From IMG/VR virus record IMGVR_UViG_3300009165_000006: DNA of 25,101 nucleotides, one strand, 5' to 3'. Position numbers and translations under genes: made by a program. This DNA is from a virus. Within the stretch, counting starts at the first letter, position 1. Each line of letters begins with the position of its first letter. The notes beneath the pieces were generated by a model. The model was not told where the DNA came from and did not search any database. It saw nothing but the letters and a program-made list of their open reading frames with translations. Positions 1,217-25,101 of this stretch are shown one piece after another.

Positions 1217-1915
1217 TTACTCAGCTAACGCCCACTTGAGTGCCACTTCACAACCCGCTGGCATTTTGGCGGATGCTAGCCCGCCTCGGCTTTGTCGGAA
1301 ACTGTTCCGAGCTTCCCATCGAACCTCTCGGGACGCTAGCCCTTGGTCGACCGACCACGCTCGGTTACAGCACTCGAGCACTTCCACGTAGTAGGTTGAT
1401 GCTAGGGCCGCCGCAAGTCGACGTTGGTCTGCCGCTTGGGCTCGAAGAACCACGGCTCCCCTTCGGGCTCGACCGCCACTACGCCCTGAAGCTCGCGCCC
1501 GGGCCTGCCCCTCCAGCTCGATGGCAGCCTGGATCGCAGCTCGTAAGCGAGTCTCAATCTCCAGCTTACGAGCCGAATGAAGCTCGGCGTACGCCCTCTC
1601 GATCTTCCGATCTTGAAACAGTCGAGCCAAATGGGCCCGCCTCTTCTCCCGCCACTTCTCCAGGTCCGCGACGTAAGTGATGTCGCTGTCCCCACCGGGA
1701 TAGTACGACTCTTCCGCGCGCGCAGTAGACCCTGCCTGCAGGGTCACCTCGCAGGACTTCCAGCGGCAGAACCCGTTGTCTCCGGACTCCACAGAAGGCC
1801 CCCGTGTGGCCCCGCCGGTCAACGTCAACCGGACGATCCCAATCCCCGACCCAAAGTAACTGTAACACTGGCAGTATAGTGTTAGTTTCTTCCCTGGACG
1901 TACATACTGTATCAT
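1217..1915 (-). CDS. hypothetical protein, N-terminal CxC...CxxxxC cluster and Ala/Arg-rich coiled-coil C-terminal half
   Basis: 232-aa ORF. Upstream TTGAGT(1959-1964 rc)-18-TAATAG(1935-1940 rc), then a 19-nt leader containing AGGAG (1924-1928 rc) 9 nt before the ATG, so this is a leadered mRNA with a Shine-Dalgarno sequence. The GC-rich opposite-strand ORFs look like translation artefacts. Confidence 0.6.
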   Translation of the reverse strand: MIQYVRPGKKLTLYCQCYSYFGSGIGIVRLTLTGGATRGPSVESGDNGFCRWKSCEVTLQAGSTARAEESYYPGGDSDITYVADLEKWREKRRAHLARLFQDRKIERAYAELHSARKLEIETRLRAAIQAAIELEGQARARASGRSGGRARRGAVVLRAQAADQRRLAAALASTYYVEVLECCNRAWSVDQGLASREVRWEARNSFRQSRGGLASAKMPAGCEVALKWALAE

Positions 1916-2138
1916 GGTTTCTTCTCCTGCACGTCTATTACGCTTGAGCCTATCCTGAACTCAATTGGGAAAGATTACCTGTAATAGTAGAGGGATACTG
2001 AACCATCGTACCGTACCGACGCGTCCAACCAGGGGAGTCCCCCTAAGCGCCACTTGATGGCGTCGCATACGGTCCTAATACGCTTACTCCCCGTCTCATG
2101 AGTGGGGGTCCCGACCAACCAACGAATCAGTTTTTCTT

Positions 2139-2860: not shown

Positions 2861-3079
2861 TTACAAGCTCGAAGCCACTGATCGACCTAGCTCGGTCGGA
2901 ACCAAGATGATTAGAGACCCACCTAAACTTTTAGTCTTCGACACGTACCCGAGCTCGAGCAGCTTAAGAGCCGGCTTGTATTCCGGGACACAACTCCAAG
3001 GAAACCCCACACCCGTAATCTTGATGATCTCTTGGAGAGTTTTAACCTGGGTGGGGGTTAGCTTTTTCGTCTTGGGCAT
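2861..3079 (-). CDS. Family B small wHTH DNA-binding protein (LexA N-terminal-like), copy 1
   Basis: 72-aa ORF. Promoter TTGAGG-17-TAATAA-6-ATG at 3080-3113. Paralog of 305..544. Confidence 0.65.
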   Translation of the reverse strand: MPKTKKLTPTQVKTLQEIIKITGVGFPWSCVPEYKPALKLLELGYVSKTKSLGGSLIILVPTELGRSVASSL

Positions 3080-3109
3080 GCCTCTTATTACGCGCGAGCT
3101 TCGAGAACC

Positions 3110-3340
3110 TCAACCGGTTTCGTCGACCCAATTCCGTCCCGTTGCCGGGTTCCAAGCCTTGAATCCCGCCCTGGTGATCCCTAGGGCGAGGGCCTTTGAG
3201 TCCGCATCGTCTCCACGTAGAGTGGGAACGTACCCATCAAGCATGCGAGCTGCTAGCTCAGCAAACGACTTGAATGCCGTCACCTTGGCAGTCAGTTCGT
3301 TGAGCGAGGCAAGCATGTCAGCCGTATGTTTGAGGGTCAT
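3110..3340 (-). CDS. Family A hypothetical protein (76 aa), copy 2
   Basis: Paralog of 2611..2844. Promoter TTGAGT-17-TAATAC-6-ATG at 3341-3375. The tandem P-A-P-B-A unit at 2580-3375 is about 85% identical at the nucleotide level between repeats. Confidence 0.65.
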   Translation of the reverse strand: MTLKHTADMLASLNELTAKVTAFKSFAELAARMLDGYVPTLRGDDADSKALALGITRAGFKAWNPATGRNWVDETG

Positions 3341-3976: not shown

Positions 3977-4591
3977 TTAGCACAACGACCTCATTATCCG
4001 CTGGTACCGAGTAAGTACGGGAGCCCTTTCTTGTGGGGAATTCCTTAGAAGCCAATCTTGGCAATCAGTAAGTTGAGCTCTTCTCTCTTTAGCACTTTTA
4101 GCACTAGAAGTGGCTGCTCGAGCAGCCCAAGTCGTAGCAGCCCTAGCAGCAGCCTGAGCATTAGCCAAAGTAGTCATAACAGAAGCAGCCCAAGCAGCAG
4201 CCTGAGCAACCCGAGCAGCTCTATGAGCAGTCCTCCAAGCAGGCATTGAAGGAGCATCCTCAGACAGAACCTCCCAAGCAGCCTTAGCAGCCCTTTCTAG
4301 TTCTTCCTTTGAGACCGCTTCCCCGTTAACAAATCGGTCACACAGATCTAAAGCTCGAAGGGTATCAGGATGGAACCAACCTGTCTTCGTACAGCCTCGG
4401 CGTGCAACCCGAGCCACTACATAGACCATTCCCCTCCGCCCAAGAATCTCTTCATGTAGGAGTACCCCTACTTTAGCATTAGACGGAATCGATGCTTCAA
4501 ACAACTCCATCACTCCCATCGGGAGTAGTTCGTCTGGGATAAGGTCGGAAGGCTCCCAACTCTCAAGGAGTTCTTTCGTAATGGTGATCAT
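3977..4591 (-). CDS. Family D hypothetical protein (204 aa, Ala-rich C-terminal half), copy 1
   Basis: Paralog of 7826..8380 (shared blocks LIP.E.LPM...FEA.I.S..K.G.LL.EEILG.RGMVYV.AR.ARR.CT.TGW.HP.TLRALDLCDR, ...KERRAQL.DC..WL). Promoter TTGACT(4624-4629 rc)-17-GATAAT(4601-4606 rc)-9-ATG. Confidence 0.65.
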   Translation of the reverse strand: MITITKELLESWEPSDLIPDELLPMGVMELFEASIPSNAKVGVLLHEEILGRRGMVYVVARVARRGCTKTGWFHPDTLRALDLCDRFVNGEAVSKEELERAAKAAWEVLSEDAPSMPAWRTAHRAARVAQAAAWAASVMTTLANAQAAARAATTWAARAATSSAKSAKERRAQLTDCQDWLLRNSPQERAPVLTRYQRIMRSLC

Positions 4592-5578: not shown

Positions 5579-6091
5579 ATGACGAGATTTCTCGTACAAT
5601 TCGAGACCGAGGACGATCAAGCCCTCATCAAGGCCCTCGTCTTCCTTCAGGAGAACGGCTTCAACCCAACCCTTCAGGCAGTCGCGGATGAACCAAAGCC
5701 CGTAGCACGTATCCCGGTAGTGGCACGCCTCGACCGGGATACGGCGTGGATGAAACTCCTCTCCGCCTTGAAGCCGAACCCCAAGAAGGTCCTCCAGTTC
5801 ATCAAGACCGGCCCCCCAAATGGTCTCTCCGCTAGGATGATCGCTGACCAGTTCAAGCAGAAACCAAACTGGTTCACCGGAGTCCTCAACGGCGGAATCC
5901 AACGTAACGTCAAGTCCGCCGGATTCCAGCTCGAAGACGTCGTTGTCATTACCCAGTATCGCGGAATGATCACCTACGCCCCCGGCCCAGAACTCAAACG
6001 CAGGGAGCTCAAAAGTCCCCTACCACCTTCACCGGCCTATGCCCCTATTGACGGTGACGAGGTCAATGAGGCTCTCCATCTGGGTGACTAG
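5579..6091 (+). CDS. hypothetical protein (170 aa), possible wHTH-like segment (VLQFIKTGPPNGLSARMIADQF)
   Basis: Protein-like composition. Its 3' end overlaps the convergent family C gene by 63 nt (antisense overlap). Confidence 0.5.
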   Translation: MTRFLVQFETEDDQALIKALVFLQENGFNPTLQAVADEPKPVARIPVVARLDRDTAWMKLLSALKPNPKKVLQFIKTGPPNGLSARMIADQFKQKPNWFTGVLNGGIQRNVKSAGFQLEDVVVITQYRGMITYAPGPELKRRELKSPLPPSPAYAPIDGDEVNEALHLGD

Positions 6092-6400
6092 TTGCCGGAG
6101 CTGGTCAGCTGTAGTCCACTGAGCAATAGCTCGAAGCTTCTCTAGAGCTGCCAGGTAAGAGGTCATCGCGTCCTTCTTCGCCATGACCTCCAGAACTAGG
6201 TCCTGAGTGGGTGGAAACCAGATCCGCCCAGCATGATCACGACAGGTTGCCTTCGAGATGCAAGTGCCCCCCAGAAGCACAACCGTAGTCTTGGTTACCT
6301 TCTTGACCTCAACCGCATGCCACTTACCATGGATGCACTGATACCACTTTGAACCAGGTACCGTATTTCGAATGGCCTCTTCGCGATCAACTGCGTTCAT
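6029..6400 (-). CDS. Family C hypothetical protein (123 aa), copy 2
   Basis: The track ORF 6029..6439 was trimmed to ATG 6398-6400. This ATG sits 5 nt after the conserved TAATAG (6406-6411 rc) with TTATGG -35 (6430-6435 rc) and aligns with the paralog N-termini (MNAVDREEAIRNTVPGSKWYQ). Confidence 0.65.
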   Translation of the reverse strand: MNAVDREEAIRNTVPGSKWYQCIHGKWHAVEVKKVTKTTVVLLGGTCISKATCRDHAGRIWFPPTQDLVLEVMAKKDAMTSYLAALEKLRAIAQWTTADQLRQLVTQMESLIDLVTVNRGIGR

Positions 6401-6583
6401 GTTCTCTATTACGCTTGCCCCCTGCGAACCCATAACCAAAATCTATAGCGTTCGCCTGTGGTACCCCCAAGAAACTAGCTTTGGCTGGGGTACTGGGAAG
6501 TCGGCCAACATCAAGTACCCCATCCGGAACCCAGTGCTTGGCTCCCCATTCTATGAAACTTAAGCTGGGTTTGGAGTCAACTT

Positions 6584-7825: not shown

Positions 7826-8380
7826 TTAGGCCCGTCTCGTAAGCCACTCCCGACAATCGGCGAGTTGGGCTTTTCTCTCTTCCTTCTCACTAGGGACAGC
7901 ACTAACAGCCGTTCGAATAACTGTTAGTGCCCTAGTCCGGGCACTAGTATCAACGGCAACAGCCCAAGCAACTCGAGCAGCCCCATGAGCAGCCTCCCAA
8001 GCATCCATTGAAGGGGCATCATCAGCCATTGAAGGAGCCTCAGAAACAGCCAAAGCAGCTGCCCCTAGCGCTTTAGCTGAGATCTCTTCCCCCTCAGCGT
8101 AACGGTCGCATAGGTCGAGAGCTCGAAGGGTAGCAGGATGGTCCCAACCTGTCTCTGTGCAGGCTCGGCGCGCAGCCCTAGCCGCCACGTAGACCATCCC
8201 CCTTCCCCCAAGAATCTCTTCACGTAGGAGAAGCCCTATCTTGTTCTCAGAGGAAATCGGGGCTTCGAACACCTTCAGCGCCTCCATTGGAAGTTGTTCA
8301 CTCGGGATGAGGTTGGAAACCTCCCACCCCTCAAGAAGTCCACTCGTAAGAACGACCCCATTTCGTTCGGTTTGGCTCAT
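7826..8380 (-). CDS. Family D hypothetical protein (184 aa), copy 2
   Basis: Promoter TTGAGA(8409-8414 rc)-17-TAATAG(8386-8391 rc)-6-ATG. Paralog of 3977..4591. Confidence 0.7.
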   Translation of the reverse strand: MSQTERNGVVLTSGLLEGWEVSNLIPSEQLPMEALKVFEAPISSENKIGLLLREEILGGRGMVYVAARAARRACTETGWDHPATLRALDLCDRYAEGEEISAKALGAAALAVSEAPSMADDAPSMDAWEAAHGAARVAWAVAVDTSARTRALTVIRTAVSAVPSEKEERKAQLADCREWLTRRA

Positions 8381-8472
8381 GCCCTCTATTACGCACGAGC
8401 ACCCGAACTCTCAACTTCTTTCTACTCTATCTATGTAAGTAGAGGACTACCCCATGAGGGTACGGGTTCCTA

Positions 8473-8739: not shown

Positions 8740-8940
8740 GATGTGTGTAGGAAACCTCACAACACAACTGGGGGTTGTGTAAAACACACAGTTCTGCAGG
8801 GAAACTGTGTGCTGTTTTCAAATGTGTAGTAAAAACACTGCACAAGTCAATTGCACGAAAGTGCCGTGATTTGTATAGTGTTTTGCCGTTTGTCGCGTTT
8901 ATTTGGAATTTTAGATCAGGTGGGTTTGATATTCGGGAGG
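8740..8940. other. AT-rich, A-tract and short-hairpin-rich region (candidate DNA unwinding element) in the divergent control region
   Basis: Local AT enrichment with TGTGT/ACACA repeats and small inverted repeats (e.g. ACACACAGTT..AACTGTGTG, GATGCGCC gaa GGCGCATC at about 8715-8735). Sits between the minus- and plus-strand gene blocks. Confidence 0.4.
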
Positions 8941-8944
8941 TCTG

Positions 8945-9140
8945 GTGATATACAAAACGGTCGGTCGGTGCTATACGAGCCCGTAGGCCGAGTGATATAC
9001 AAAACCGAACCAAGAACCAAAGTGATATACAAGCCCACGGGCAGGCTTCGCAGGCCAATGGGCTTGTATATCACTGACCCAAGAGCCGGGATAATTTGTA
9101 TATCACTGACCCAAGAGCCGGAAAGGAAAGTGATATACAA
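8945..9140. repeat. iteron array: 6 copies of GTGATATACAA (direct at 8945, 8992, 9022, 9130; inverted at 9065, 9096), including a 26-bp direct repeat TTGTATATCACTGACCCAAGAGCCGG x2 (9065-9090, 9096-9121)
   Basis: Read directly. Spacings of about 30-31 bp (three helical turns). Typical of plasmid/phage origin iterons, partition sites or operator arrays. Confidence 0.75.
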
Positions 9141-11927: not shown

Positions 11928-12421
11928 AATTGGCTATTACGATGGTCTATGAGTTCAAAGCCAATGGGAAAGTCATTTACGGATATCGGTTCGATCATCA
12001 ACTACTTCAAGTAGTTGATGGGATGGAGCCCGTGTGCCAGTCAAACTCTTCCCATGTAGTTGTACCGGGCGGGCTCTACTGTCCCCAGTGTGGTTCAACG
12101 GTGAAAAAGCGGGATCGGATGGTGCCTTCGCCAATCGTAGTCGAGTATGCTACTCAGTATGGGATGTCCATTGACGTGGCGCTATCTACTCTTCTCAACT
12201 GTCAGCATCAAGTACCTCAGCAGTGGTTTGATCCGAACGATAGTGAAGACTGGCTATTTGGGGTTACGGTCGTGGATGGAGGGGCGAACACTTGCACGGA
12301 GTTCTACCCGTTTTGGCATCCGGATCGAATCGAGGGCTTAGAGAAGGCGGTTCTGCTCTTCACTGACCTCGGATTGGATCCCGCAGGGGCGAAGTACTAC
12401 CTCTTAGTGAAACCGTCATGA
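11915..12421 (+). CDS. hypothetical protein (168 aa) with CPQCG zinc-ribbon-like motif
   Basis: Start overlaps the upstream stop within a CCATGGGTG context. The same context occurs at 23842-23850. Confidence 0.55.
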   Translation: MGGIELAITMVYEFKANGKVIYGYRFDHQLLQVVDGMEPVCQSNSSHVVVPGGLYCPQCGSTVKKRDRMVPSPIVVEYATQYGMSIDVALSTLLNCQHQVPQQWFDPNDSEDWLFGVTVVDGGANTCTEFYPFWHPDRIEGLEKAVLLFTDLGLDPAGAKYYLLVKPS

Positions 12422-12636
12422 CGGTGTTAAGTGCACTCATGACTAACTCGAAAGCAGTGCCGAACCAAGTCATCTATCAAGGGGTGCTGGATGATGGACA
12501 GATCATACTCACCTCTGTCCATCATCCTTCGGAGTATGTGAGTGAGGATGGGAAGGTGGTCATGACGTGTGAATCTGTCGAAGAAATCCCACTAAACAGC
12601 AGTTTCCCAGAACCCAAGACCCACTCCCAATCTTAA
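12418..12636 (+). CDS. hypothetical protein (72 aa)
   Basis: ATGA start/stop overlap with the upstream gene. Confidence 0.45.
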   Translation: MTVLSALMTNSKAVPNQVIYQGVLDDGQIILTSVHHPSEYVSEDGKVVMTCESVEEIPLNSSFPEPKTHSQS

Positions 12637-12849
12637 CACAAAGGTCTCTGTGGACATAGTTGTACAGAAATAAGAGAGGTGGTTACCCAGTGACTAATGC
12701 ACCTATTACTCCATGCTAAGTATGACTCAACACCTAAATGAGGATTCAAGTCCAAGGGTACATTCCGCCCTAAAGAAACCTAAGAAGCTTAAAGGACGTT
12801 CGAGAGTTGACAAGGATTGCAGGTTAGTCTCGAAAGGTTACTTGGTACA

Positions 12850-13095
12850 ATGTACTCTGAAGTTCTAAGGTATTTAGCAGTTGGGCTGGGTGGGTACTCC
12901 CTGGCTTTGCTGACGATTGCGGTGATCGATTGGCAGGCGAATCGCATTCGTCGACGGCGTGGCTTTTGGTCAATCTCGCCCGATGGTTCCGACGTGATGT
13001 GGCAGAAGGGCGATTTGAAGCTTCACTTTTCTATGATCTCTCGTGAAATTCAGCAAGAGCAACCAGTCCAGACGCAACGTAAAGGGATGGACTGA
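12850..13095 (+). CDS. small membrane protein (one TM helix YLAVGLGGYSLALLTIAVI followed by RRRR); holin-like topology is speculative
   Basis: ORF 12817..13095, with ATG 12850 preferred (AAAGG about 13 nt upstream). Convergent with the beta-helix gene. Confidence 0.4.
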   Translation: MYSEVLRYLAVGLGGYSLALLTIAVIDWQANRIRRRRGFWSISPDGSDVMWQKGDLKLHFSMISREIQQEQPVQTQRKGMD

Positions 13096-13207
13096 AAGGA
13101 TACTTTCAGGGCATGGCCGACCTATTACGGATCTGCATCTTCATCGGACTGTGGGTCTGCGAAGTCTATCTCTGTCGTATGCTTTATCGAGCGTGTTGAA
13201 AGAAGGT

Positions 13208-13250
13208 GGTCTTCGAGTGATCCTAGTTCGATTGGGCTCGAAGGACCTTT
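13208..13250. terminator. hairpin GGTCTTCGAG...CTCGAAGGACC followed by TTT, between convergent genes
   Basis: Inverted repeat read directly. Short T-run only. Confidence 0.35.
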
Positions 13251-13253
13251 GAC

Positions 13254-15218
13254 TCAGTAGGCATCAATCTCGACAGTGAAGTCTCCGGGGCTAACGGGTG
13301 AGTTAGATTCTAGTTGTACTGCGAGGAATGAGGCTCGTTCGAACAGTATAGAAGATTTGTAATTCTCTGCCATAGTGATCCCGTTAGTGATGCTCACACT
13401 CACTGGAGTGTGGATCCCCTGTCCGGCGATACCACTCAAGGACTTGAGTGCCGTTGCCTTAACCACAGTGGTGCCTAAATCTGTGTTCCTAACTACGATG
13501 GAGATCCCTTGCACGATGGTATCTTGCTGGAAGCGGTAGAATACCTGGGTACTGTCCAACGCGGTCTGCAGTCCTTGCCATAGGTACCTGATACCATTAG
13601 GCAGGTTACCTCGATAGCCATACACGAAAGTATTTGGTCTCGTGTATGTTGAGAAAGGCTTGCCATTGGTACTTTTCGTAACCAAGTCAACACCAGGCCC
13701 GACGTTGATGCCATTGGGCACGTTACCCGAGAGCGGTAGGAGTTGAAGGATATCCGATCCGTTGTACTTGGGCACAAACGTTAGATCATCTGTATCCACA
13801 GTACCCACGGTAGTGCAGATGAATGCGTGTCCTTCATCTGTACCACCCTCCACAGTTATGTAGGCATTGAAGGAAGTTGTTCCTGCGGGCATATCCCCAG
13901 CCCGAGTCCAGGCTCCAGTCGAATTGTAGGTCCAAGTACCATTGTTTACTGCACTTGTGGCCTGATCCAAGAATAGGCGATCTCCTTCGGCGGGCGTGTA
14001 GGAGCCTTGAGCTGCTCTAGATCCTGTAGGGGATCCCCCTGTATACCTGGCCATCACGGGCAACTTGAGATCTACCCCGCTATAGGTGTGTCTCCAGGTT
14101 AGAGGATCTGTGCCAACTGTGGCTGGGTAACTAACACAGAGCCACTTTTGGGACGCGAAGCTTCCTTCTTGCACCTCTATCCAAGATCCACTGGCATTGC
14201 TGCCAAGGGGCATATCTGCCGCACGGGTCCAAGCCTCACTAGCAACTATCCAAACAGAGTTCTGGGTTTCTGTGTTTTGACTTCCGAGGAGGATTCGGTC
14301 ACCAGCGACCAGTGTGACTCCTTGAATGGTTTGGATCCCTGATAGAGTCGTGTTCACAAGTGAGAACAGGCGTACCGAGGGGTTAGTAGTTGGTGATTGA
14401 TAGGGTACTCCAGATATGGAGGTTGTTCTTAGCTGGATTTGGCTGTTGTTATTCTCACAGCAAACCCCAGTGTAGTTACCCGCTGAGGCCAAGTCTCGTG
14501 GGGCGGCAACGTAAATGTTTGAGTCTCTCCAGGAGATCTGACACCCGGAGCCTGTCGGGGGCAAGTAGATCCCGTACTTGTGGCCATTCCCGTTGGAACG
14601 GAGATTCATTGTGCTACTTCGAGTTTGATTGAAGCTGAACGTTGCTGGCCCAAGGATACCGGTACCTGTCACGTAGAGGCCATACACGTTGGTGGTACTG
14701 CCCGTCGAGACTGTGGCGTTATCTATATTGAGAACGCAAGTTCTGATCTTCGATGTGATTGACGTCGTACCCGGGAGCTCAAGTAGTACTAGGTTAGCCG
14801 TATCTGATGTTGACGTTAAGTTCAGGGTCAGATCCTCTATACGAGAATTCTCCCCCATCGTGATCATTGTAGCGCTTACAGAGGTAGTGAGTGTGATGCT
14901 GCACACTTGCAAGCTGAATCCACGCATTGAGCAGGTGGCGGGCATTACGAACCCGGCAGCGATAGTATACCGCCCCGGTAAGAGCCACATAGTCACTTCC
15001 GTGAAGCCATACGTATTGATGTAGGCGATGGCGGCTTCAACTGTTTTGAAGGGTAATCCGTTGATCACTCCCGTTGAGTCATTCCCGTTGACGTCATCGA
15101 TGATGATGACGTCACCAAGGCTAAAGGAGTTGGGTCCCCCGGGGACGTTGAGCTTTCGGATGATAGTCCCGAAGTCATCACGAGCGAGTTCTTGTGGTGT
15201 AACTGTCATATTATCCAA
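13254..15218 (-). CDS. right-handed beta-helix protein (DUF1565/pectate-lyase-like N-terminal signature GNDSTG..PFKTVEAAI...LLPGRY); probable tailspike / tail fibre / depolymerase
   Basis: 654-aa ORF, Thr/Ser/Asn/Gly-rich. Internal tandem roughly 60-aa repeat (GDRILLGSQN...AWTRAADMPLG... / GDRLFLDQAT...AWTRAGDMPAG...). Overlaps the upstream gene by 8 nt. Confidence 0.65.
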   Translation of the reverse strand: MDNMTVTPQELARDDFGTIIRKLNVPGGPNSFSLGDVIIIDDVNGNDSTGVINGLPFKTVEAAIAYINTYGFTEVTMWLLPGRYTIAAGFVMPATCSMRGFSLQVCSITLTTSVSATMITMGENSRIEDLTLNLTSTSDTANLVLLELPGTTSITSKIRTCVLNIDNATVSTGSTTNVYGLYVTGTGILGPATFSFNQTRSSTMNLRSNGNGHKYGIYLPPTGSGCQISWRDSNIYVAAPRDLASAGNYTGVCCENNNSQIQLRTTSISGVPYQSPTTNPSVRLFSLVNTTLSGIQTIQGVTLVAGDRILLGSQNTETQNSVWIVASEAWTRAADMPLGSNASGSWIEVQEGSFASQKWLCVSYPATVGTDPLTWRHTYSGVDLKLPVMARYTGGSPTGSRAAQGSYTPAEGDRLFLDQATSAVNNGTWTYNSTGAWTRAGDMPAGTTSFNAYITVEGGTDEGHAFICTTVGTVDTDDLTFVPKYNGSDILQLLPLSGNVPNGINVGPGVDLVTKSTNGKPFSTYTRPNTFVYGYRGNLPNGIRYLWQGLQTALDSTQVFYRFQQDTIVQGISIVVRNTDLGTTVVKATALKSLSGIAGQGIHTPVSVSITNGITMAENYKSSILFERASFLAVQLESNSPVSPGDFTVEIDAY

Positions 15219-15648
15219 CCCTTACTAAGAACTCTAAAGGCAAGGCCACTGTATTGATGAAGGTGGTCTCTGTGAAGGTAGCGTTGTGGATGATGTCTAC
15301 GGCACCTATAGAGGTTAACCACGTGACTACCGAACCCGTAACAACCTTTTTGAGAGCTGCTGCGTTGGGGTAATACCCTAGGTCATGGTGTATCGTTGCT
15401 GAGTTCCCTGGGCCCGGGAAGGCCGCTAGAGAGAGGATCTCGTTGAGCCTTAGCTTACCCACCTTCTCGAACTGATAGAGATCACCTTTTTGAGCGGATC
15501 GAATGACTTCTGAAGTGTCGGGCAGGTAAACACTACGTCCCGCCCCAATGTACTGGTCCTCAGCTCTCCGGGCCTCGGATTGACCCTGCCGAATGAGTCT
15601 TAAGTCCTTCAGGTAGATCGGAGCATTGGTGAGATTCGTGACTTTCAT
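15211..15648 (-). CDS. hypothetical protein (145 aa), co-transcribed upstream partner of the beta-helix protein
   Basis: Clean ORF. GGGG 5-8 nt before the ATG. Putative promoter TTAGAC-17-GATAAC upstream. Confidence 0.55.
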   Translation of the reverse strand: MKVTNLTNAPIYLKDLRLIRQGQSEARRAEDQYIGAGRSVYLPDTSEVIRSAQKGDLYQFEKVGKLRLNEILSLAAFPGPGNSATIHHDLGYYPNAAALKKVVTGSVVTWLTSIGAVDIIHNATFTETTFINTVALPLEFLVRVG

Positions 15649-15767
15649 GAAACCCCAGATGTAATCTCATCAGAGAGTTATCTGACCTAGGGTTACCTGG
15701 TCTAAACCCTTGATATACTTATACTAATCCTAAGCCTGGTAGGTTTCCGTAGCTAGCGACATAGGTT

Positions 15768-15795
15768 TTGACTTCTAGAGGAAATCACGTAGGAT
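15768..15795 (+). promoter_or_regulatory. sigma70-like promoter TTGACT-16-TAGGAT for the Thg1-like gene (about 35-nt leader)
   Basis: Hexamers read directly. The same TTGACT...TAGGAT pair recurs at 24216-24242. Confidence 0.5.
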
Positions 15796-15830
15796 GGTTA
15801 GCTACTCGAGCACAGAAGTGACCTCAAAGT

Positions 15831-16577
15831 ATGAAAAGTGACAACCTTGATGTTCGGATGCGACGGCTTGAGTGCTATCATGCGCTGGAAGTCTTACCTG
15901 GTGCCTATCCCATTGTTCGTGTTGATGGGCGGAGCTTCACGAAGCTGACCCGAGGAATGGAGCATCCATTCGATGTGAAGTTTCACGAGTGCATGGTGGC
16001 GACGGCGAAGGCTTTGTTGATTGAGTTAGGTGGACTCTATGCATTCACGGAGAGTGACGAAATTTCGGTTCTACTGCCTCGTGATACGGATCTATTCGGT
16101 CGCGAAGTGGAGAAGCTTGTGTCGGTCTCTGCGGGGATAGCGTCGTCGACCTTTTCGTTGGAGCTGGGCAAGCCTGGTCACTTTGACGGTCGGGTCTGGG
16201 TGGGGATCTTGGAGAACGACGTGGTCGATTACTTCCGATGGAGGCAGTCGGATGCCTTTCGCTGTTGTCTGAACTCCTGGTGTTACTGGACGTTGAGAAA
16301 GGCTGGGAAGAACGCCAAGCAGGCGACGGAGGTCCTTGAAGGTCGGAGTTTCTCGGCCAAGAACGAACTACTCTTTCAGCATGGGATCAATTTCAACAAG
16401 CTCGCTACCTGGCAAAAGCATGGTGTCGGTCTCTATTGGGAGGACTTCGAGAGGACTGGGTTCAACCCCAAGACCAAGGCACCCACGACGTGCACTCGTC
16501 GGAAGGTTTTGGTGAACCGGGATCTACCACGGGGTTTGGAGTACGTTAACCTCGTGCTACGGGTAGGTGGGTTATGA
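15831..16577 (+). CDS. Thg1-like protein (tRNA-His guanylyltransferase family; 3'-5' nucleotidyltransferase)
   Basis: Hallmark blocks PIVRVDGRSFTKLT (RxDGxxF), YAFTESDEISVLL (SDE carboxylates), FDGRVW, CYWTLRKAGKNAKQATEVLEGRSFSAKNELLFQHGINFNKL. Stand-alone transcription unit. Confidence 0.75.
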   Translation: MKSDNLDVRMRRLECYHALEVLPGAYPIVRVDGRSFTKLTRGMEHPFDVKFHECMVATAKALLIELGGLYAFTESDEISVLLPRDTDLFGREVEKLVSVSAGIASSTFSLELGKPGHFDGRVWVGILENDVVDYFRWRQSDAFRCCLNSWCYWTLRKAGKNAKQATEVLEGRSFSAKNELLFQHGINFNKLATWQKHGVGLYWEDFERTGFNPKTKAPTTCTRRKVLVNRDLPRGLEYVNLVLRVGGL

Positions 16578-16849
16578 ACAGTTGGATTTCAGCTAGAACG
16601 CTCTTTCAGCCAAACAAGAACCCTCGTCCCAGTACTTCGCAACGTAGGAGACGAGAGTCCTCAAAGATTTGAACCTAGCATCCACAGTACAATAACAACG
16701 GTAGACTTCAAGGCTCCTAATGGAGCCTTAGTGACCCTGCACATAAGCGAACAAGAGTTGGAACAACTCCTCCCGTTCTTCACTGAACCACCCGTACCAA
16801 AAACAACAAAGACGATGTACCCATCAAGGTATCACCGGGTGCCAGTGAT

Positions 16850-17128
16850 CTAGATCGTCTCAAGTGCTCGATTGAGCGCAAAGCGAATCACTCGTAGATC
16901 TCGCTCCGTTAGCTTCATGGTGAATTCTTTTCCCTCGTTGCTATCCATGTTAACAACAACGTCAAGGATGTTGGGCAACTGAGGTCCAAGTAGGGCGGTT
17001 ACCTTGTCCCGTTGGATCTCTATGGCGGAACGGACTAGGTCAGCATTCGCCACCGTCGAGAACTCTGGATCATACACATCGGATATTGGTCCTGGCATGC
17101 TCAGTACCGTATCTGAGAACGTGTTCAA
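16850..17128 (-). CDS. hypothetical protein (about 82-92 aa)
   Basis: The track start is a TTG at 17128. An ATG start at 17098 (MPGPISD) is equally possible. Confidence 0.45.
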   Translation of the reverse strand: MNTFSDTVLSMPGPISDVYDPEFSTVANADLVRSAIEIQRDKVTALLGPQLPNILDVVVNMDSNEGKEFTMKLTERDLRVIRFALNRALETI

Positions 17129-17224
17129 ACTTACGTTAGAGTAGAACTCTCAGTTTGAAGCTATGCGAACCAGATTTTGTGATCTTACCTTCACAGTAAG
17201 CCTCCGGCTAGTACGGTAATAGCG

Positions 17225-17260
17225 CGAATGCAGTGCCCCTTCGGGCACTGCATCATTCGA
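17225..17260. other. GC-rich hairpin (GCAGTGCCC-CTTC-GGGCACTGC, extendable to about 14 bp) in a 480-bp non-coding gap
   Basis: Read directly. Additional perfect small hairpins at about 17322-17345 (TCGAGGAAT..ATTCCTCGA), 17355-17370 and 17448-17460. Confidence 0.6.
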
Positions 17261-17607
17261 CGATCGGGACACTTCCTAAGTAAACTTAGGCATAGCCTTC
17301 GATCCATCGATTCACCAATTTCGAGGAATATCGACATTCCTCGACCATTTTGTCCTGGAACGTCCAGGTGATCTAGGAACTACTTTCCCCGAAAGGATCA
17401 AGTCCTCTTGGTGTTTGGTCAACTTGATTTTCCTCAAGTCTTTTACCACAGCAAGGAAGTGCGCGGAACGCGCTGTTTCGTGCCGTGAACCCGATAGACT
17501 TGCTTTTCAAGGACCCATCAGATCTACCACTTTACGGAATTATGACCTGAGGCCGGTATGCTAAATCCGATTGGAATTCTTGTCAAGTTGAAAATGATCG
17601 GGTAACT

Positions 17608-17898
17608 TTGATCAGGTTTGGAGTCAACTGCTACGACCCTAACCCACCCCCAGGTCTAAAGTCCACTCCAATGCCCACGTCCACGTTCGAGAACCAAGAT
17701 GACATGATGAAGACCATCACCGAGAACGAACAAGGGAAGCCGGTCGAGGTTAATGCTTTGACCTTCGATGAGGAGTACCCGTTCGCGACCTCGCCGTTTG
17801 ACGAAGAGCCTAGGCTACCGGAGATGCCACGTGACCACACGGTGATGCATAAGACGGTCAGTGGCAACGGCGTAGTAGGACGATTGAGGAAACCATGA
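17608..17898 (+). CDS. hypothetical acidic protein (up to 96 aa; start uncertain)
   Basis: ORF only. Followed by a strong hairpin. Confidence 0.4.
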   Translation: MIRFGVNCYDPNPPPGLKSTPMPTSTFENQDDMMKTITENEQGKPVEVNALTFDEEYPFATSPFDEEPRLPEMPRDHTVMHKTVSGNGVVGRLRKP

Positions 17899-17908
17899 GT
17901 CACGAGAT

Positions 17909-17939
17909 GAAGAACGGGTCAACCACTTGACCCGTTCTT
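17909..17939. terminator. bidirectional terminator-like hairpin (AGAACGGGTCAA-CCAC-TTGACCCGTTCT, 12-13 bp stem) between convergent genes
   Basis: Read directly. Weak T-tract (TTCTTAT). Confidence 0.5.
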
Positions 17940-17944
17940 ATCGG

Positions 17945-18304
17945 TTAGCGAGCCTTCTTCCGAAGGGCTTCGAGGGCTTGCTTGGCGACGTTGAGTTCGG
18001 TTTCCACGTCACTCTCCGAATCGACGTCATGCTCACTCGCAGCGAAGCAAGCGTGCTCGATTCTGAGTGCTATCTCGCGCAACATCTCGCATGGGAGATC
18101 CAACCCCCTCCCAAGCTTCCGGATTGCTCCGATGGTAAGCCAATTCACGAACTCGGGCACCGTCCTGTAGTGGTTGGGGAGGGTACATGCAGACCCAACG
18201 AATTCGCTGGCAACCACGGCGTAGGGCTCCAAACCTACGCAACGAAATGCCTCGGCCAATGTGGTTCGAACAGCTTCGTCAATCTTCTCTGCTGGGTCGT
18301 ACAT
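17945..18304 (-). CDS. hypothetical protein (119 aa, acidic C-terminus)
   Basis: Promoter TTGAGT(18333-18338 rc)-17-TAGTAC(18310-18315 rc)-5-ATG. Confidence 0.6.
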   Translation of the reverse strand: MYDPAEKIDEAVRTTLAEAFRCVGLEPYAVVASEFVGSACTLPNHYRTVPEFVNWLTIGAIRKLGRGLDLPCEMLREIALRIEHACFAASEHDVDSESDVETELNVAKQALEALRKKAR

Positions 18305-18469
18305 GCTAAGTACTACGCACGATGGGGTGAGAACTCAACAACAAAAAAGTGGTATTGCCAGTGCAACCTGAGTATTAGTTTTTGGGTTTGGGGCCGTTTC
18401 AACCCCAGGTGGAGAAGCCTCGAAGGGGTTTGGGTGGTACTGGTTTTGCACCTTGTAGGGGGCTTGGAC

Positions 18470-18802
18470 TCAACGTTTCTTGGCCTTGGGGTGGGTGCAA
18501 GTAGGTGTGTGACCGTCGACCTCCTTAGCGCGGCAGAAGTAGCAGGTTCTGCCTTCGAAGATCCCTATCGTGGACCACTCGGGGGGAGTCCGACGGATCC
18601 TTGCGTCCTGGAAGTACTGTTCGGTTTTCCAAACAGGCGAGTTTCCGTTCCAAGAGATGAGCGCTTTACCCTCTTCAAGATTCACCTCGAGGACTTGGAT
18701 CTTCCAGACCCTCATTACAGACATGGTGGTATTTCCAGCCCTCTCCTTGTGGCAGTCGTAGAGAACATCCCCAGTCTTCAGGCTTTTGATTGCAATTGAC
18801 AT
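18470..18802 (-). CDS. hypothetical protein (110 aa) with C-terminal CYFC...H.PTCTH Cys/His cluster
   Basis: Promoter TTGAGG(18832-18837 rc)-18-TATAAT(18808-18813 rc)-5-ATG, which is a consensus -10. Confidence 0.6.
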   Translation of the reverse strand: MSIAIKSLKTGDVLYDCHKERAGNTTMSVMRVWKIQVLEVNLEEGKALISWNGNSPVWKTEQYFQDARIRRTPPEWSTIGIFEGRTCYFCRAKEVDGHTPTCTHPKAKKR

Positions 18803-18911
18803 GTTCTATTATACGTTCGAAGGTAGGGGAACCTCAACAGCTCCCTGTCGATTTCGATCTCTTCCAGGAAGCTGTTGAAATGTTGCAATAGAGTGCGAGT
18901 AGTTTAAGGTC

Positions 18912-19598
18912 TCACCGGAGAGGCTTGGCATAGTAGTGCCAAGCGTGGTTCGAGTGGTTCATGAAGTCAGCTTCCTTCACAGCATCCTCATAGGGCTTGG
19001 GATCAGATGCGATGAAGCGTGGGTTCCCCTTGTGTCCGATGGGCTCGCAGAAGACCCCGTAGAGGCCTTCTGGTCGATTCCCTACCATTAGGGTCCAATT
19101 GGGATCGGGGGTTGGTGGTTGCGGGTTCACGGCCTCGGTGATGGCTTGAATGACACGCTCATCCTCAGCTTCGCGGATGCTCTGCTTTAGGTAGCCTTTT
19201 TCAAACTCTTTGACCTTGGGTGGGTCCACGGTCTCGTTCTTGTGACGATCCTTACCAGTAAGCAAAGGATCGTTCTCGGTGATGGCTGCATAGACCTTTT
19301 CGGCCGCCACGAGAGGAGGTATGCGACCATCTTTGACCCTCATGAAGTAGGTTCGGAGTACGTCCTTGATGACCCCCCCTTGAGAGAACGGATAGGGCTC
19401 TAGTCGCTTGGCCATATCGAAGGCGTATTGGGCGAGGTACCCATTCGTGTAGGATACCTCGATGGCTATGGACTCCTGAACCAGCTCCTCAACAACCCCT
19501 GGCGTTAGGTGATCTCGCATGAGATCGTAGAGAAAACTCGTAAGCCGGCTTCGAATATTGACACTACCACTTCGTTCACGCAGGTCTTTGTTGGACAT
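18912..19598 (-). CDS. hypothetical protein (228 aa)
   Basis: Clean ORF. No family-type promoter. No motif recognised. Confidence 0.55.
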   Translation of the reverse strand: MSNKDLRERSGSVNIRSRLTSFLYDLMRDHLTPGVVEELVQESIAIEVSYTNGYLAQYAFDMAKRLEPYPFSQGGVIKDVLRTYFMRVKDGRIPPLVAAEKVYAAITENDPLLTGKDRHKNETVDPPKVKEFEKGYLKQSIREAEDERVIQAITEAVNPQPPTPDPNWTLMVGNRPEGLYGVFCEPIGHKGNPRFIASDPKPYEDAVKEADFMNHSNHAWHYYAKPLR

Positions 19599-19669
19599 CG
19601 GAGTGGTAGTTACACCGGGGAGGGACCCGAGGATTCAAAAACTCAACTCCCGGGGTATCGACTTGGCAT

Positions 19670-19922
19670 GAAAACCATACCCCATGTGATCTCTATCCTC
19701 ATCATCGTGGCTTGGCTGCTCCCTTGGACGAACGAGGCAGGCACCCAAAGGGCCTTGAAGTACAATGGGTTCACTGATGTACGGACCAAGGGGCATAGCT
19801 TTTTTACCTGTATGGACTGGTCAGCTACGGAGTTCGAAGCAACCAACCCAGCAGGGCTGCCACGGGTGACGGGTACCGTTTGTTGTGGGCTCGTCGTCAA
19901 GGCTTGTACAATCCGGTGGTAA
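19670..19922 (+). CDS. small secreted protein (signal-peptide-like N-terminus MKTIPHVISILIIVAWLLPW)
   Basis: Internal ATG of ORF 19509..19922. TTCAAA-16-TATCGA-6-ATG geometry. Confidence 0.4.
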
Positions 19923-19973
19923 CTTCGAACGGCTGTCTTTGACTTGGAGCGAGTAAGGTGCCAAAATCAACCT

Positions 19974-20231
19974 ATGCTCAAGGAATTTCTCAGATCTGCG
20001 ACCTCGATTACGATACTTCGAATCGAGGGCACAGATACTATTCAGGTTTTCTTCGAAGGAGCTGCTAGCCCCTATCCTGAGCTAGCAGCTCAACAGCCAA
20101 ACGAGTACAAGGGAGTCGTATTTTCTGTCGAGACCCGGCGAGGATATGCAGAAGAGTGGTTGAAGGTCAACCACTTTTCAGGAAAAGTTCGGTTGATAAC
20201 CAAGTCAGGCGCTTCCGAGATTCGGCTTTAG
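19974..20231 (+). CDS. hypothetical protein (86 aa)
   Basis: Internal ATG of ORF 19944..20231, directly preceded by TTGACT(19939-19944)-17-CAAAAT(19962-19967)-6-ATG. Confidence 0.45.
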   Translation: MLKEFLRSATSITILRIEGTDTIQVFFEGAASPYPELAAQQPNEYKGVVFSVETRRGYAEEWLKVNHFSGKVRLITKSGASEIRL

Positions 20232-20715: not shown

Positions 20716-22143
20716 ATGAAGAAGAGTCGGTTCTTCATGCTGCACCCCGAGTGTAACCCAGGGAAACTAGCCTCCCTTGAAGCCCTCCATGTCGAATACG
20801 TCTCTTACGTTCGGATCTGCGTCCAGACGATGCTTGAAGCTCGTAGGCTGACTTTACCTCGTTCCAAGAAGCAAGAGTTCTTTCCACGAGCTGAGAAGCT
20901 CACATCTCAGATTGAGAAGAACGCCCGAGACCACGCTATTCAGATCGTGAGTACTTGAGCTAAATCAGTCTACGTCCGGAAGCTCAAGACCCACATTCGA
21001 TTGGCTTTCAAGAGGGGTGAAATCACCGAGGACTTCCGAAAGCAACTCTACACAGTAGAGAAGTATCTGGTTCATGAGCCAAGGGACACTGTCTCCCAAG
21101 AAGCTATCGATCTGTATTGGACTTGGCTCTCAGACCCAGAAGTAGTGGGAAATTTCCCAAGCGTGTCCAATCGGATTCCAATGAGGATGTCGGAAAACAC
21201 TTGCTCATTGGAAGATCCAGAAGAAACTGTCCACGCTGATTTTTGGCTCAAGATCTCAACCTTGGTTTCGCGTAAGCTTGCCTGGTTACCATTGGTTGGT
21301 AACCCTTATGTGAGGAAAGCTTCCGATGTTTCCAAGGGAATCCATGCGAGGAAAGACCGAAAGGGCCGTTGGCGTTTTGAAGCGGTTGATATCAAGGAGT
21401 GGCTCGTTCTGGAAGCTGAGCCAGAGTTACCTCGAGTAGGAGTCGACGTTGGGCTGAACGTAGTAGCGGCTACTTCGAGTGGACACACGTTTGGGGCTGA
21501 CCTTCAACCAAAGTTCAACCAGCTCTACAACAAGGTCAGGGCGGTTCGCTCGAACCGCCAGAGACAGAATCTTAAGGACAACTCACCCAGGCTTGACCGC
21601 CTAGAGTCCAAGCTTTCTGGGCTTACTAAGAGTATCACAGGACGAGTATCAAATGAGCTTCTTCTAGCTTATCCAGAATCGGTCTTCGTTCTTGAAGACC
21701 TTGATCTCTCTGGATGTCGAGGTCAGAAACGTTTTTGTTATCGGGCTTTAGCTCACGCTCTTGAGTCAAAAGCCCCGACGGAAGTTGTCAATCCGGCCTA
21801 TTCGTCTCAGACATGCCCGTCATGCGGGCATGTCTCCAGACTTAACAGGTCTGGAACCAGTTTCGTCTGCCGCCAGTGCGGCAGACGTTCACATGCTGAT
21901 GTGGTGGGAGGGATCAATCTGCTCAGACGTTCTGAGAGCAAACAGATTGGTCTCGATGATCATCCGTCGGAAGTGAAGGAAGTGCTTGTGAGGCTATACT
22001 GGAATCGAGGTAATCTCGGTCGGGAGTGTCCACAGGACTTCTTGAATAAGTTCGCGCCATTATCGTATGGCCGCAGGCTTACTACCAGAGCATCGCCCCG
22101 CAAGGGGCAGGCTGGCACAGCCTCTAATCAGGTAGCTGCTTGA
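20716..22143 (+). pseudogene. tnpB: TnpB / IS605-IS1341 OrfB-like RNA-guided RuvC nuclease homolog; reading frame interrupted by a single in-frame TGA (20956-20958) and carrying a roughly 70-aa C-terminal extension
   Basis: N-terminal TnpB-like start (MKKSRFFMLHPE...) and ORF 21001..22143 are in the same frame, separated only by the TGA. Downstream RuvC-I GVDVGLN, RuvC-II VFVLEDLDL, zinc ribbon CPSCGH...CRQCG and RuvC-III HADVVGGINLL are all intact. No TnpA gene nearby. Confidence 0.75.
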
Positions 22144-24291: not shown

Positions 24292-25101
24292 ATGAGCAGC
24301 CTACCAACCCCCCTAGAGCTCTTGAAACAAAAGCATGCGGATCTGTTCAAAGGCCTTCAGTTCAGCTCCAAAGACAACAAGATGGCTGGGAAGGTGCTCA
24401 AGAAAGACGGAGAGGAAGCCGCCCTAGCGTTTCTGAGTGAGCGAGGGGTATCAAGGGGCGAGCTCCCAAACTTTCGACCTCCGGCTAAGACCTTGGTAGT
24501 TGCGCAGAGTCGACCTTTTGAGGAGTTTCCAATTTACCGAGTGAGTGAGGCTATTCAGCTCTATGTTTACAGCCTTTCTGTAAAGGAGTTGGAGACAGTA
24601 CCAAGCGGATCTAGTACCAAAAAAGAGCATCAACGGTTCTTTCAAGATAGTTCAGTACCTGATTTTGGATACACATCAGTCCAAGGTCTGAACAAGATCT
24701 TTGGTCTCGCCAGGGGAATCTATCTAGGAGTGATCACGAGGGGGGAGAATCAACTCCAGAAGGCCAAGAGTAAGCACGAGGCACTCAACAAAAAGCGTAG
24801 GGCTTCGGGGGAGGCAGAGACGGAGTTTGATCCAACCCCTTACGAGTACATGACTCCTGAGCGTAAGTTGGCAAAGCCCCCTGGAGTCAATCACAGCATC
24901 ATGTGTTATGTGGATATTAGTGTAGATGAATTTGACTTTAGGAACCCAGATGGCATTGTCTTACCCTCTGAGTATGCTGGATACTGTCGTGAGATCAATA
25001 CTGCGATTGAGAAGGGTACTGTCGATCGATTAGGTCACTTGAAGGGGGGCCCTGGGTATATCCCAGGGCATCAACGGAAGGAGAGCACGACAGAAGGTCC
25101 T
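24292..25101 (+). CDS. hypothetical protein, 3'-partial (at least 270 aa, runs off the window end)
   Basis: Manual translation from ATG 24292 (MSSLPTPLELLKQKHADLF...) is open to 25101. Not in the ORF track because there is no stop in the window. The start codon lies inside the hairpin GCTGCTCAT-CGTT-ATGAGCAGC. Confidence 0.5.
   Translation, partial: MSSLPTPLELLKQKHADLFKGLQFSSKDNKMAGKVLKKDGEEAALAFLSERGVSRGELPNFRPPAKTLVVAQSRPFEEFPIYRVSEAIQLYVYSLSVKELETVPSGSSTKKEHQRFFQDSSVPDFGYTSVQGLNKIFGLARGIYLGVITRGENQLQKAKSKHEALNKKRRASGEAETEFDPTPYEYMTPERKLAKPPGVNHSIMCYVDISVDEFDFRNPDGIVLPSEYAGYCREINTAIEKGTVDRLGHLKGGPGYIPGHQRKESTTEGP

Follow-up and report, generated by a model that had tools for sequence, protein, structure and literature searches.

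A stretch of viral DNA of 25,101 nucleotides (IMG/VR record IMGVR_UViG_3300009165_000006, called the window here at its full length) carries a gene for a Thg1-like protein (TLP) of 248 residues, a 3'-5' nucleotidyltransferase, at 15831-16577 on the plus strand, stop codon included. Judged by its sequence, the gene is a genuine and intact Thg1-like 3'-5' RNA polymerase. We consider it probable (about 0.6) that it encodes an active TLP which forms a single-gene accessory unit of a phage-like element, probably of about 450 kb, and which serves in the upkeep or rescue of tRNA 5' ends during infection. The presence of TLPs in phages and the idea that they act in repair or counter-defence are already published and are not new. 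Phage copies of Thg1 were suggested to repair RNA against host defences (Anantharaman, Iyer and Aravind, 2010, PMC2904730), Thg1 was later counted among the sporadic RNA-repair genes of jumbo phages with the same repair or counter-defence idea (Iyer et al., 2021, PMC7824862), and for the TLPs of cultured phages it has been speculated that they modify or repair tRNAs to withstand host defences (PMC2904730, PMC7824862). What the window adds is local in scope: a distinct clade of uncultivated phage-like TLPs derived from a bacterial kinase-TLP operon, and the loss of the kinase cassette in the window itself.

The assignment to the Thg1 family, and within it to the TLP type, is secure on profile and sequence comparison. 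The protein matches Pfam Thg1 (PF04446; 93.6 bits against a cut-off of 29.2, 1.2e-26) and Thg1C (PF14413; 56.4 bits against 26.3, 4.3e-15), as well as PHROG 4717, 'tRNA-His guanylyltransferase' (1.6e-35), while a search of NCBIfam returned no model for it. Among PDB sequences the TLP of Methanosarcina acetivorans (MaTLP, 5AXK) ranks first at 1.3e-31, followed by the TLP of Bacillus thuringiensis (BtTLP, 4KGK) at 6e-20 and human Thg1 at 1e-17; no unrelated nucleotidyltransferase family gives a better match. The start codon at 15831 is supported by the homologues, which align from residue 1 with 98-100% coverage. A sequence-only reading of this DNA had recognised the family by four catalytic motifs, and all four are found in the translation (IVRVDGRSF, TESDEIS, HFDGRVW and KNELLFQHGINFN); the open reading frame (ORF) is real and the observation holds.

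The closest characterised relative is MaTLP (PDB 5AXK-5AXN; Kimura et al., 2016, PMC4820378), which is the best match both in sequence (about 32% identity) and in structure, and the residues whose roles are described there were placed onto the window protein through the 5AXK alignment. The carboxylates that hold the two catalytic metals in MaTLP (D21, D69 and E70) are present as D32, D76 and E77, next to S75 for S68. Three of the four basic residues that bind the triphosphate are kept exactly (R19, K86 and R114 as R30, K95 and R121), and the fourth, R83, is shifted to R91. The anticodon-site residues F174, N179 and R188 correspond to F182, N187 and K196, and the hairpin arginine R215 to R223. 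In an alignment of 42 TLP homologues that are 55-87% identical, R30, D32, G33, S75, D76, E77, R91, K95, D119, R121, R223 and R224 are invariant in every sequence, and N187 is nearly so. An AlphaFold2 model built on this alignment (mean pLDDT 93, pTM 0.88) shows a long beta-hairpin at 199-229, with predicted strands at 199-212 and 217-229, that carries the invariant R223. When the model was compared with the PDB by Foldseek, the top 32 matches were all Thg1 or TLP chains, the best being 5axk_B (E 2.9e-22, TM 0.84). The two proteins therefore have in common the metal-binding aspartates, the triphosphate-binding arginines and lysine, the hairpin with its conserved arginine and the anticodon-site residues; they differ in that MaTLP is an archaeal chromosomal gene, whereas the window TLP lies on a phage-like element and is known from its sequence and model, with the R83 position displaced by one.

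Eukaryotic Thg1 (human 3OTB, yeast 5XOX, Candida 3WBZ) also shares the palm fold and the catalytic carboxylates. It is dedicated to the non-templated addition of G-1 to tRNAHis and reads the anticodon with a HINNLYN motif, in which H154 of the human enzyme stacks on the anticodon base G36 (PMC6471195). In the PDB alignment the window protein reads AFRCCLNS where human Thg1 has CHINNLYN; with the HINNLYN motif missing, it is a TLP and not Thg1 proper. A eukaryotic-type Thg1 was ruled out by the same FRCCLNS replacement and by the better matches to MaTLP and BtTLP. The same site bears on whether the enzyme could mature tRNAHis, adding G-1 to phage or host tRNAHis in which the genome does not encode it and so enabling charging by HisRS in infection. 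Such a role would match the usual annotation of the family, and MaTLP has a second, anticodon-dependent mode of G-1 addition that uses F174, N179 and R188 (PMC4820378), of which the window TLP keeps the counterparts F182, N187 and K196; large phages, moreover, often carry many tRNA genes (PMC5852040). We nevertheless hold it to be unlikely. Most bacteria encode G-1 in the genome (PMC3061083), the eukaryotic anticodon-reading motif is absent, neither the window nor any retrieved flank contains a tRNAHis gene, and context lends no support, as the cellular relatives of the clade adjoin PNK, Hen1 and Pnkp repair genes and not tRNAHis.

This context argues for RNA 5'-end repair. An iterative hidden Markov model (HMM) search of every ORF of 60 aa or more in the fetched loci recovered a recurrent partner, a P-loop kinase that matches Pfam AAA_33 and, more weakly, KTI12, and that among PDB sequences is most similar to the kinase domain of mammalian polynucleotide kinase/phosphatase (PNKP; 1e-12). 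This kinase lies directly upstream of the TLP gene, co-directional with it and usually overlapping its start, in 57 of 80 cellular genome loci, among them cyanobacteria, Chloroflexota, Planctomycetota, Acidobacteriota and Actinomycetota. Outside the phage-like clade, 36 of 75 metagenome loci likewise have it directly upstream and co-directional; in 11 of the 75 the upstream sequence is too short to judge. In a metagenome-assembled genome of Nostoc sp. (L075:8162-13498), Hen1, the kinase, the TLP and Pnkp, all confirmed by Pfam, follow one another in one co-directional string. Similar loci occur in Nostocales, with Pnkp confirmed by Pfam in one (L036), and a further ten loci encode, downstream of the TLP, a protein of about 860-930 aa with a kinase domain. 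Elsewhere HD-kinase fusions and an RlaP-kinase-DUF6557 fusion stand beside the TLP. By their domain content, the surroundings of the TLP in cellular relatives are an RNA-repair neighbourhood. The two-gene operon of PNK-type kinase and Thg1 was described earlier, with the proposal that the kinase makes the 5'-phosphate needed by Thg1 (Anantharaman et al., 2010, PMC2904730), and the window TLP belongs to the same branch as this bacterial operon, including the Hen1-kinase-TLP-Pnkp clusters of Nostocales. The function in RNA 5'-end repair put forward from the sequence alone is accordingly the best-supported reading, with relatives in PNK-type kinase operons and, in Nostoc, between Hen1 and Pnkp.

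The phage-like relatives depart from the bacterial operon in that the TLP comes before the kinase, or the two genes stand 2.6-8.6 kb apart. The kinase is immediately downstream of the TLP in the related loci L008 and L009, 2.6 kb downstream in L006, 6.2 kb downstream in L096 (whose TLP is 87% identical to that of the window) and 8.6 kb downstream on a 435-kb contig carrying the TLP P0007. In several of these relatives the PNK-like kinase has an ORFan on either side, of 229 and 178 aa (L097:564-1253 and L097:1749-2285; L009:11213-11746; L003:11348-12709), and in L009 the TLP, the kinase and the 178-aa gene form one overlapping string. Neither protein has a Pfam or PDB sequence match; from their position they could be further components of the module. 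In L096 a gene for a 95-aa protein with a GatB/YqeY domain (1661-1948, plus strand; 5.6e-17) starts at the TLP stop codon; this domain binds tRNA in GatB, and the protein has no homologue in the window. In L003:2382-6252 and on the 435-kb contig carrying P0007, the region 1-4 kb upstream of the TLP encodes an ABC-transporter set: a binding protein with NMT1 and OmpA domains, a permease and an ATPase. The set is unusual cargo for a virus and is absent from the window.

In the window the kinase cassette is missing altogether. The flanks align collinearly with the related locus L097 on both sides of the gap, window 19407-19619 with L097 64-276 (81%) and window 19638-19922 with L097 2620-2908 (87%). 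At this junction (19620-19637), 18 nt in the window stand against a 2343-nt block in L097, which holds genes of 70 aa, 229 aa, 154 aa (the PNK-like AAA_33 kinase), 178 aa and 101 aa. The HMM search detected a kinase neither in the window nor in the roughly 8 kb of flank added to it by exact-protein matches (about 6.4 kb on the left, L090, and about 1.6 kb on the right, L092), and none of the 52 window ORFs matches AAA_33. Pfam and PHROG scans of the neighbouring genes gave no ligase, phosphatase, CCA-adding enzyme or kinase, and the earlier statement that no partner is recognisable among the neighbours is correct for the window, where no partner family appears in Pfam among the 52 ORFs. The related locus L003, whose TLP is 87% identical, keeps the 229-aa and 178-aa genes and has about 95 nt in place of the kinase gene. 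With the whole cassette gone in one case and the kinase alone in the other, the kinase has been removed in two ways within the sub-lineage closest to the window. The TLP itself is under purifying selection: the ratio of non-synonymous to synonymous substitution rates (dN/dS) falls between 0.13 and 0.20 for every pair compared, the two kinase-less loci, window and L003, giving 0.158. As selection persists in the kinase-less copies, the stand-alone state is derived and the enzyme is evidently useful without a dedicated kinase. The 'stand-alone' state described in the sequence-only reading does not characterise the lineage; relatives carry a PNK-like kinase next to the TLP or a few kb from it, and the window displays a local loss of the 2.3-kb cassette.

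The same losses could be taken as the signature of decay, the TLP being a functionless remnant, one captured half of a bacterial kinase-TLP operon that degenerates after loss of its partner. The deletion of the cassette in the window and of the kinase alone in L003 would fit this, as would the flanks, which are unrelated between relatives, so that the gene is being shuffled. Against it stand an ORF of full length with every catalytic residue intact, the dN/dS of 0.158 between the two kinase-less copies and the retention of the TLP at 70-100% identity in at least 10 distinct elements. The selection signal makes a decaying remnant very improbable.

To place the clade, a neighbour-joining (NJ) tree of 87 TLPs was built with 40 bootstraps; it is rooted on a partial human sequence, which is a weak rooting, and its deeper branching is unreliable. 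The phage-like TLPs form one clade in 39 of the 40 bootstraps, nested within the bacterial kinase-linked TLPs, and the closest cellular relatives of the window TLP are 54-58% identical to it. Phage TLPs are widely annotated, with 159 GenBank phage records and the PHROG family 4717. Those of cultured phages (for example Bacillus phages Bc431v3 and G, Burkholderia phage BcepSauron, Brevundimonas phage Kikimora and Pseudomonas phage 201phi2-1) are members of the same family, and in both records that were examined, Kikimora and BcepSauron, the TLP is likewise a lone gene among the ORFans of large or jumbo phages. However, they are only 28-34% identical to the window TLP and distant from it in the tree, at a patristic distance from the window clade of 1.5-1.7, against 0.74 for cyanobacterial TLPs. 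The position of the clade within bacterial kinase-linked TLPs, far from Kikimora and BcepSauron, points to an independent capture of the bacterial kinase-TLP module.

The mechanism we propose is taken over from characterised TLPs. A tRNA, or a tRNA-like RNA, with a shortened 5' end would be bound at its acceptor stem and elbow. The enzyme would activate a 5'-monophosphate with ATP or GTP, or use a 5'-triphosphate directly; with the 3' strand of the stem as template, it would then extend the 5' end by 3'-5' addition until the helix is complete again. Catalysis would depend on two Mg2+ ions, coordinated by D32 and D76/E77. The PNK-type kinase of the ancestral module presumably supplied the 5'-phosphate on 5'-OH ends; with the cassette lost in the window element, the TLP would have to act on 5'-phosphate or 5'-triphosphate ends, or to use a kinase encoded elsewhere. 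Its most likely role in infection would be the upkeep or rescue of host or phage tRNAs with damaged or immature 5' ends.

Several observations weigh against tRNA 5'-end repair by this enzyme. ARAGORN found no tRNA gene in the window, in agreement with the sequence-only reading, nor any in 18 related loci; the suggestion to look for tRNA genes elsewhere on the element likewise gave none in the retrievable flanks. Nor is there a structured RNA in the window or in the retrieved flanks of relatives: Rfam gave no match at gathering score across the full window, nor any at E<=1 between 15000 and 21000. Both the window and L003 lack the kinase that would render 5'-OH ends usable, and the canonical kinase-plus-TLP pathway cannot run from the window. 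Within the active site, R83 of MaTLP aligns with E92, the invariant R91 lying one residue earlier, a position that is slightly uncertain. We know of no bacterial nuclease that shortens tRNA 5' ends. Finally, the literature searched contains no biochemical test of any phage TLP, and no physiological role demonstrated for any bacterial or phage TLP.

A less likely alternative is a substrate other than tRNA, the TLP extending or adenylylating the 5' ends of phage transcripts or small RNAs, which might serve ligation, a cap-like modification or escape from decay or sensing that depends on the 5' end. DdiTLP4 polymerises on non-tRNA substrates (PMC6471195), Thg1 has been suggested to generate 5'-App ends for ligation (Anantharaman et al., PMC2904730), and a kinase lost twice from beside a TLP that is still selected fits substrates that bear a 5'-phosphate or 5'-triphosphate, such as primary transcripts. 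Yet the window TLP keeps the beta-hairpin and the invariant R223, whose MaTLP equivalents measure the tRNA acceptor stem and elbow (PMC4820378), and Rfam gives no candidate structured RNA near the gene. We regard such a role as improbable, and tRNA 5'-end upkeep or rescue remains the preferred reading.

The TLP gene is a solitary unit, as had been claimed. Its upstream neighbour (15211-15648, minus strand) is divergent and its downstream neighbour (16850-17128, minus strand) convergent, so that the gene is monocistronic by geometry. A promoter within the 182-nt divergent intergenic region before it is plausible from the sequence. The hexamer pair TTGACT-16-TAGGAT, earlier described as a strong promoter, is indeed present on the plus strand at 15768-15795, 35 nt before the ATG, and is a possible sigma-70-like promoter. 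It matches 9 of 12 consensus positions, and sites of this grade occur 10 times in window 12000-20000 against 6.4 +/- 2.6 in shuffled sequence; at such a chance frequency the hexamers are promoter-like, and 'strong' is unjustified. The upstream regions of TLP relatives do not align and the pair is not kept in most of them, L009 alone having a loosely similar TTGACT...TAGCAT at the same place. The idea of a special promoter upstream of the TLP was rejected, since a 9/12 match is ordinary and turns up about as often as chance predicts.

Where the window is compared with its 84-87% relatives, homology starts exactly at the ATG of the TLP and stops just before the stop codon. Being confined to the ORF in this way, the gene moves as a single-gene mosaic unit. 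TLPs that are 70-87% identical come only from uncultivated material, and relatives lie on two IMG/VR contigs and on contigs of 435,302, 442,082, 443,068 and 464,890 bp from different samples; one of the IMG/VR entries, L008, covers 66 kb of the 443-kb contig. The near-equal size of the four contigs suggests complete replicons of about 450 kb. On these contigs the TLP is surrounded by dense small genes with no Pfam match, and several ORFans are common to them and the window in shuffled order. In the window itself a Pfam scan of all 52 ORFs gave four families only (Thg1, Thg1C, Cas12f1-like_TNB and DUF551), and the window as a whole found no counterpart by megablast among 50,697 phage records. 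A 654-aa gene at 13254-15218 (minus strand) carries a domain of phage head-decoration, virion and tail-fibre PHROGs and of such proteins of cultured phages. The window element is probably an uncultivated phage-like element of about 450 kb, a huge phage or a comparable giant element. Phage hallmark genes were sought in 91 ORFs of related loci and yielded no capsid and no terminase, with weak tail-like matches only; with neither in the accessible sequence, 'phage' is likely and not proven, the label resting on IMG/VR membership, ORFan density and contig sizes. The description of a virus-like accessory region agrees with this phage-like, ORFan-rich element, given its PHROG matches, IMG/VR relatives and Pfam-poor ORFs.

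Other features of the window were recorded alongside. A 380-aa TnpB-like gene at 21001-22143 (plus strand) matches Pfam Cas12f1-like_TNB (1.8e-13), weakly OrfB_IS605, and PHROG 'transposase'; its best phage match, at 48% identity, is in a 485-kb uncultured phage record (LR745208.1), where there are four matching places. The end of the window, 24292-25101 (plus strand), holds the N-terminal part of a 793-aa protein that continues in L092:2145-4526. Its C-terminal region (550-726) matches TnpB/Cas12f-like RuvC and TNB profiles weakly (PHROG 12300, 2e-9; Pfam TNB, 4.6e-4), and by these weak matches the protein is a large relative of TnpB or Cas12. The window yielded no CRISPR-like repeat array. 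A 20-nt motif, CGYGCGTAATAGRGNGC-ATG, occurs on the minus strand in five places (542-561, 892-911, 3077-3096, 6398-6417 and 8378-8397), ending exactly at the ATG in all five against none expected in shuffles. Four of the five are starts of listed minus-strand ORFs (305-544, 718-894, 6029-6439 with an internal ATG at 6400, and 7826-8380). L097 has a similar sequence at the right-hand end of its kinase cassette, and the motif is absent from the TLP gene; it may be an element-specific promoter or leaderless start signal. At 8930-9140, where transcription diverges and the GC skew flips sign, GTGATATACAA is directly repeated four times and TTGTATATCACTGACCCAAGAGCCGG is present as two perfect copies of 26 nt in the opposite orientation; these may mark an operator or an origin-like control region. 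The left arm contains diverged internal duplications of 73-81% identity (4267-4566 and 8035-8334; 2584-2805 and 3083-3304; 339-468 and 2871-3000). These are paralogous small genes and include an Ala/Gly-rich stretch with 12-nt periodicity at 4136-4219.

A more far-reaching account is that a clade of phage-like elements of about 450 kb captured a bacterial kinase-TLP module, shed the kinase twice and kept the TLP under strong purifying selection, the enzyme now working by itself on 5'-phosphate or 5'-triphosphate ends. Taken as a whole this is a long shot. If it is true, a phage TLP would work alone on such ends, and might then be a dedicated counter-measure to a yet-undiscovered host nuclease that trims tRNA 5' ends; alternatively, it might mature phage tRNAs encoded with mismatched acceptor stems, as the counterpart in a bacterial virus of the tRNA 5'-editing of mitochondria. 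The lineage offers a natural comparison, since elements with TLPs that are 70-100% identical keep the kinase, have lost the kinase only or have lost the whole cassette. With elements so closely related, the question of whether a viral TLP needs a 5'-kinase, and on which RNA, becomes directly testable.

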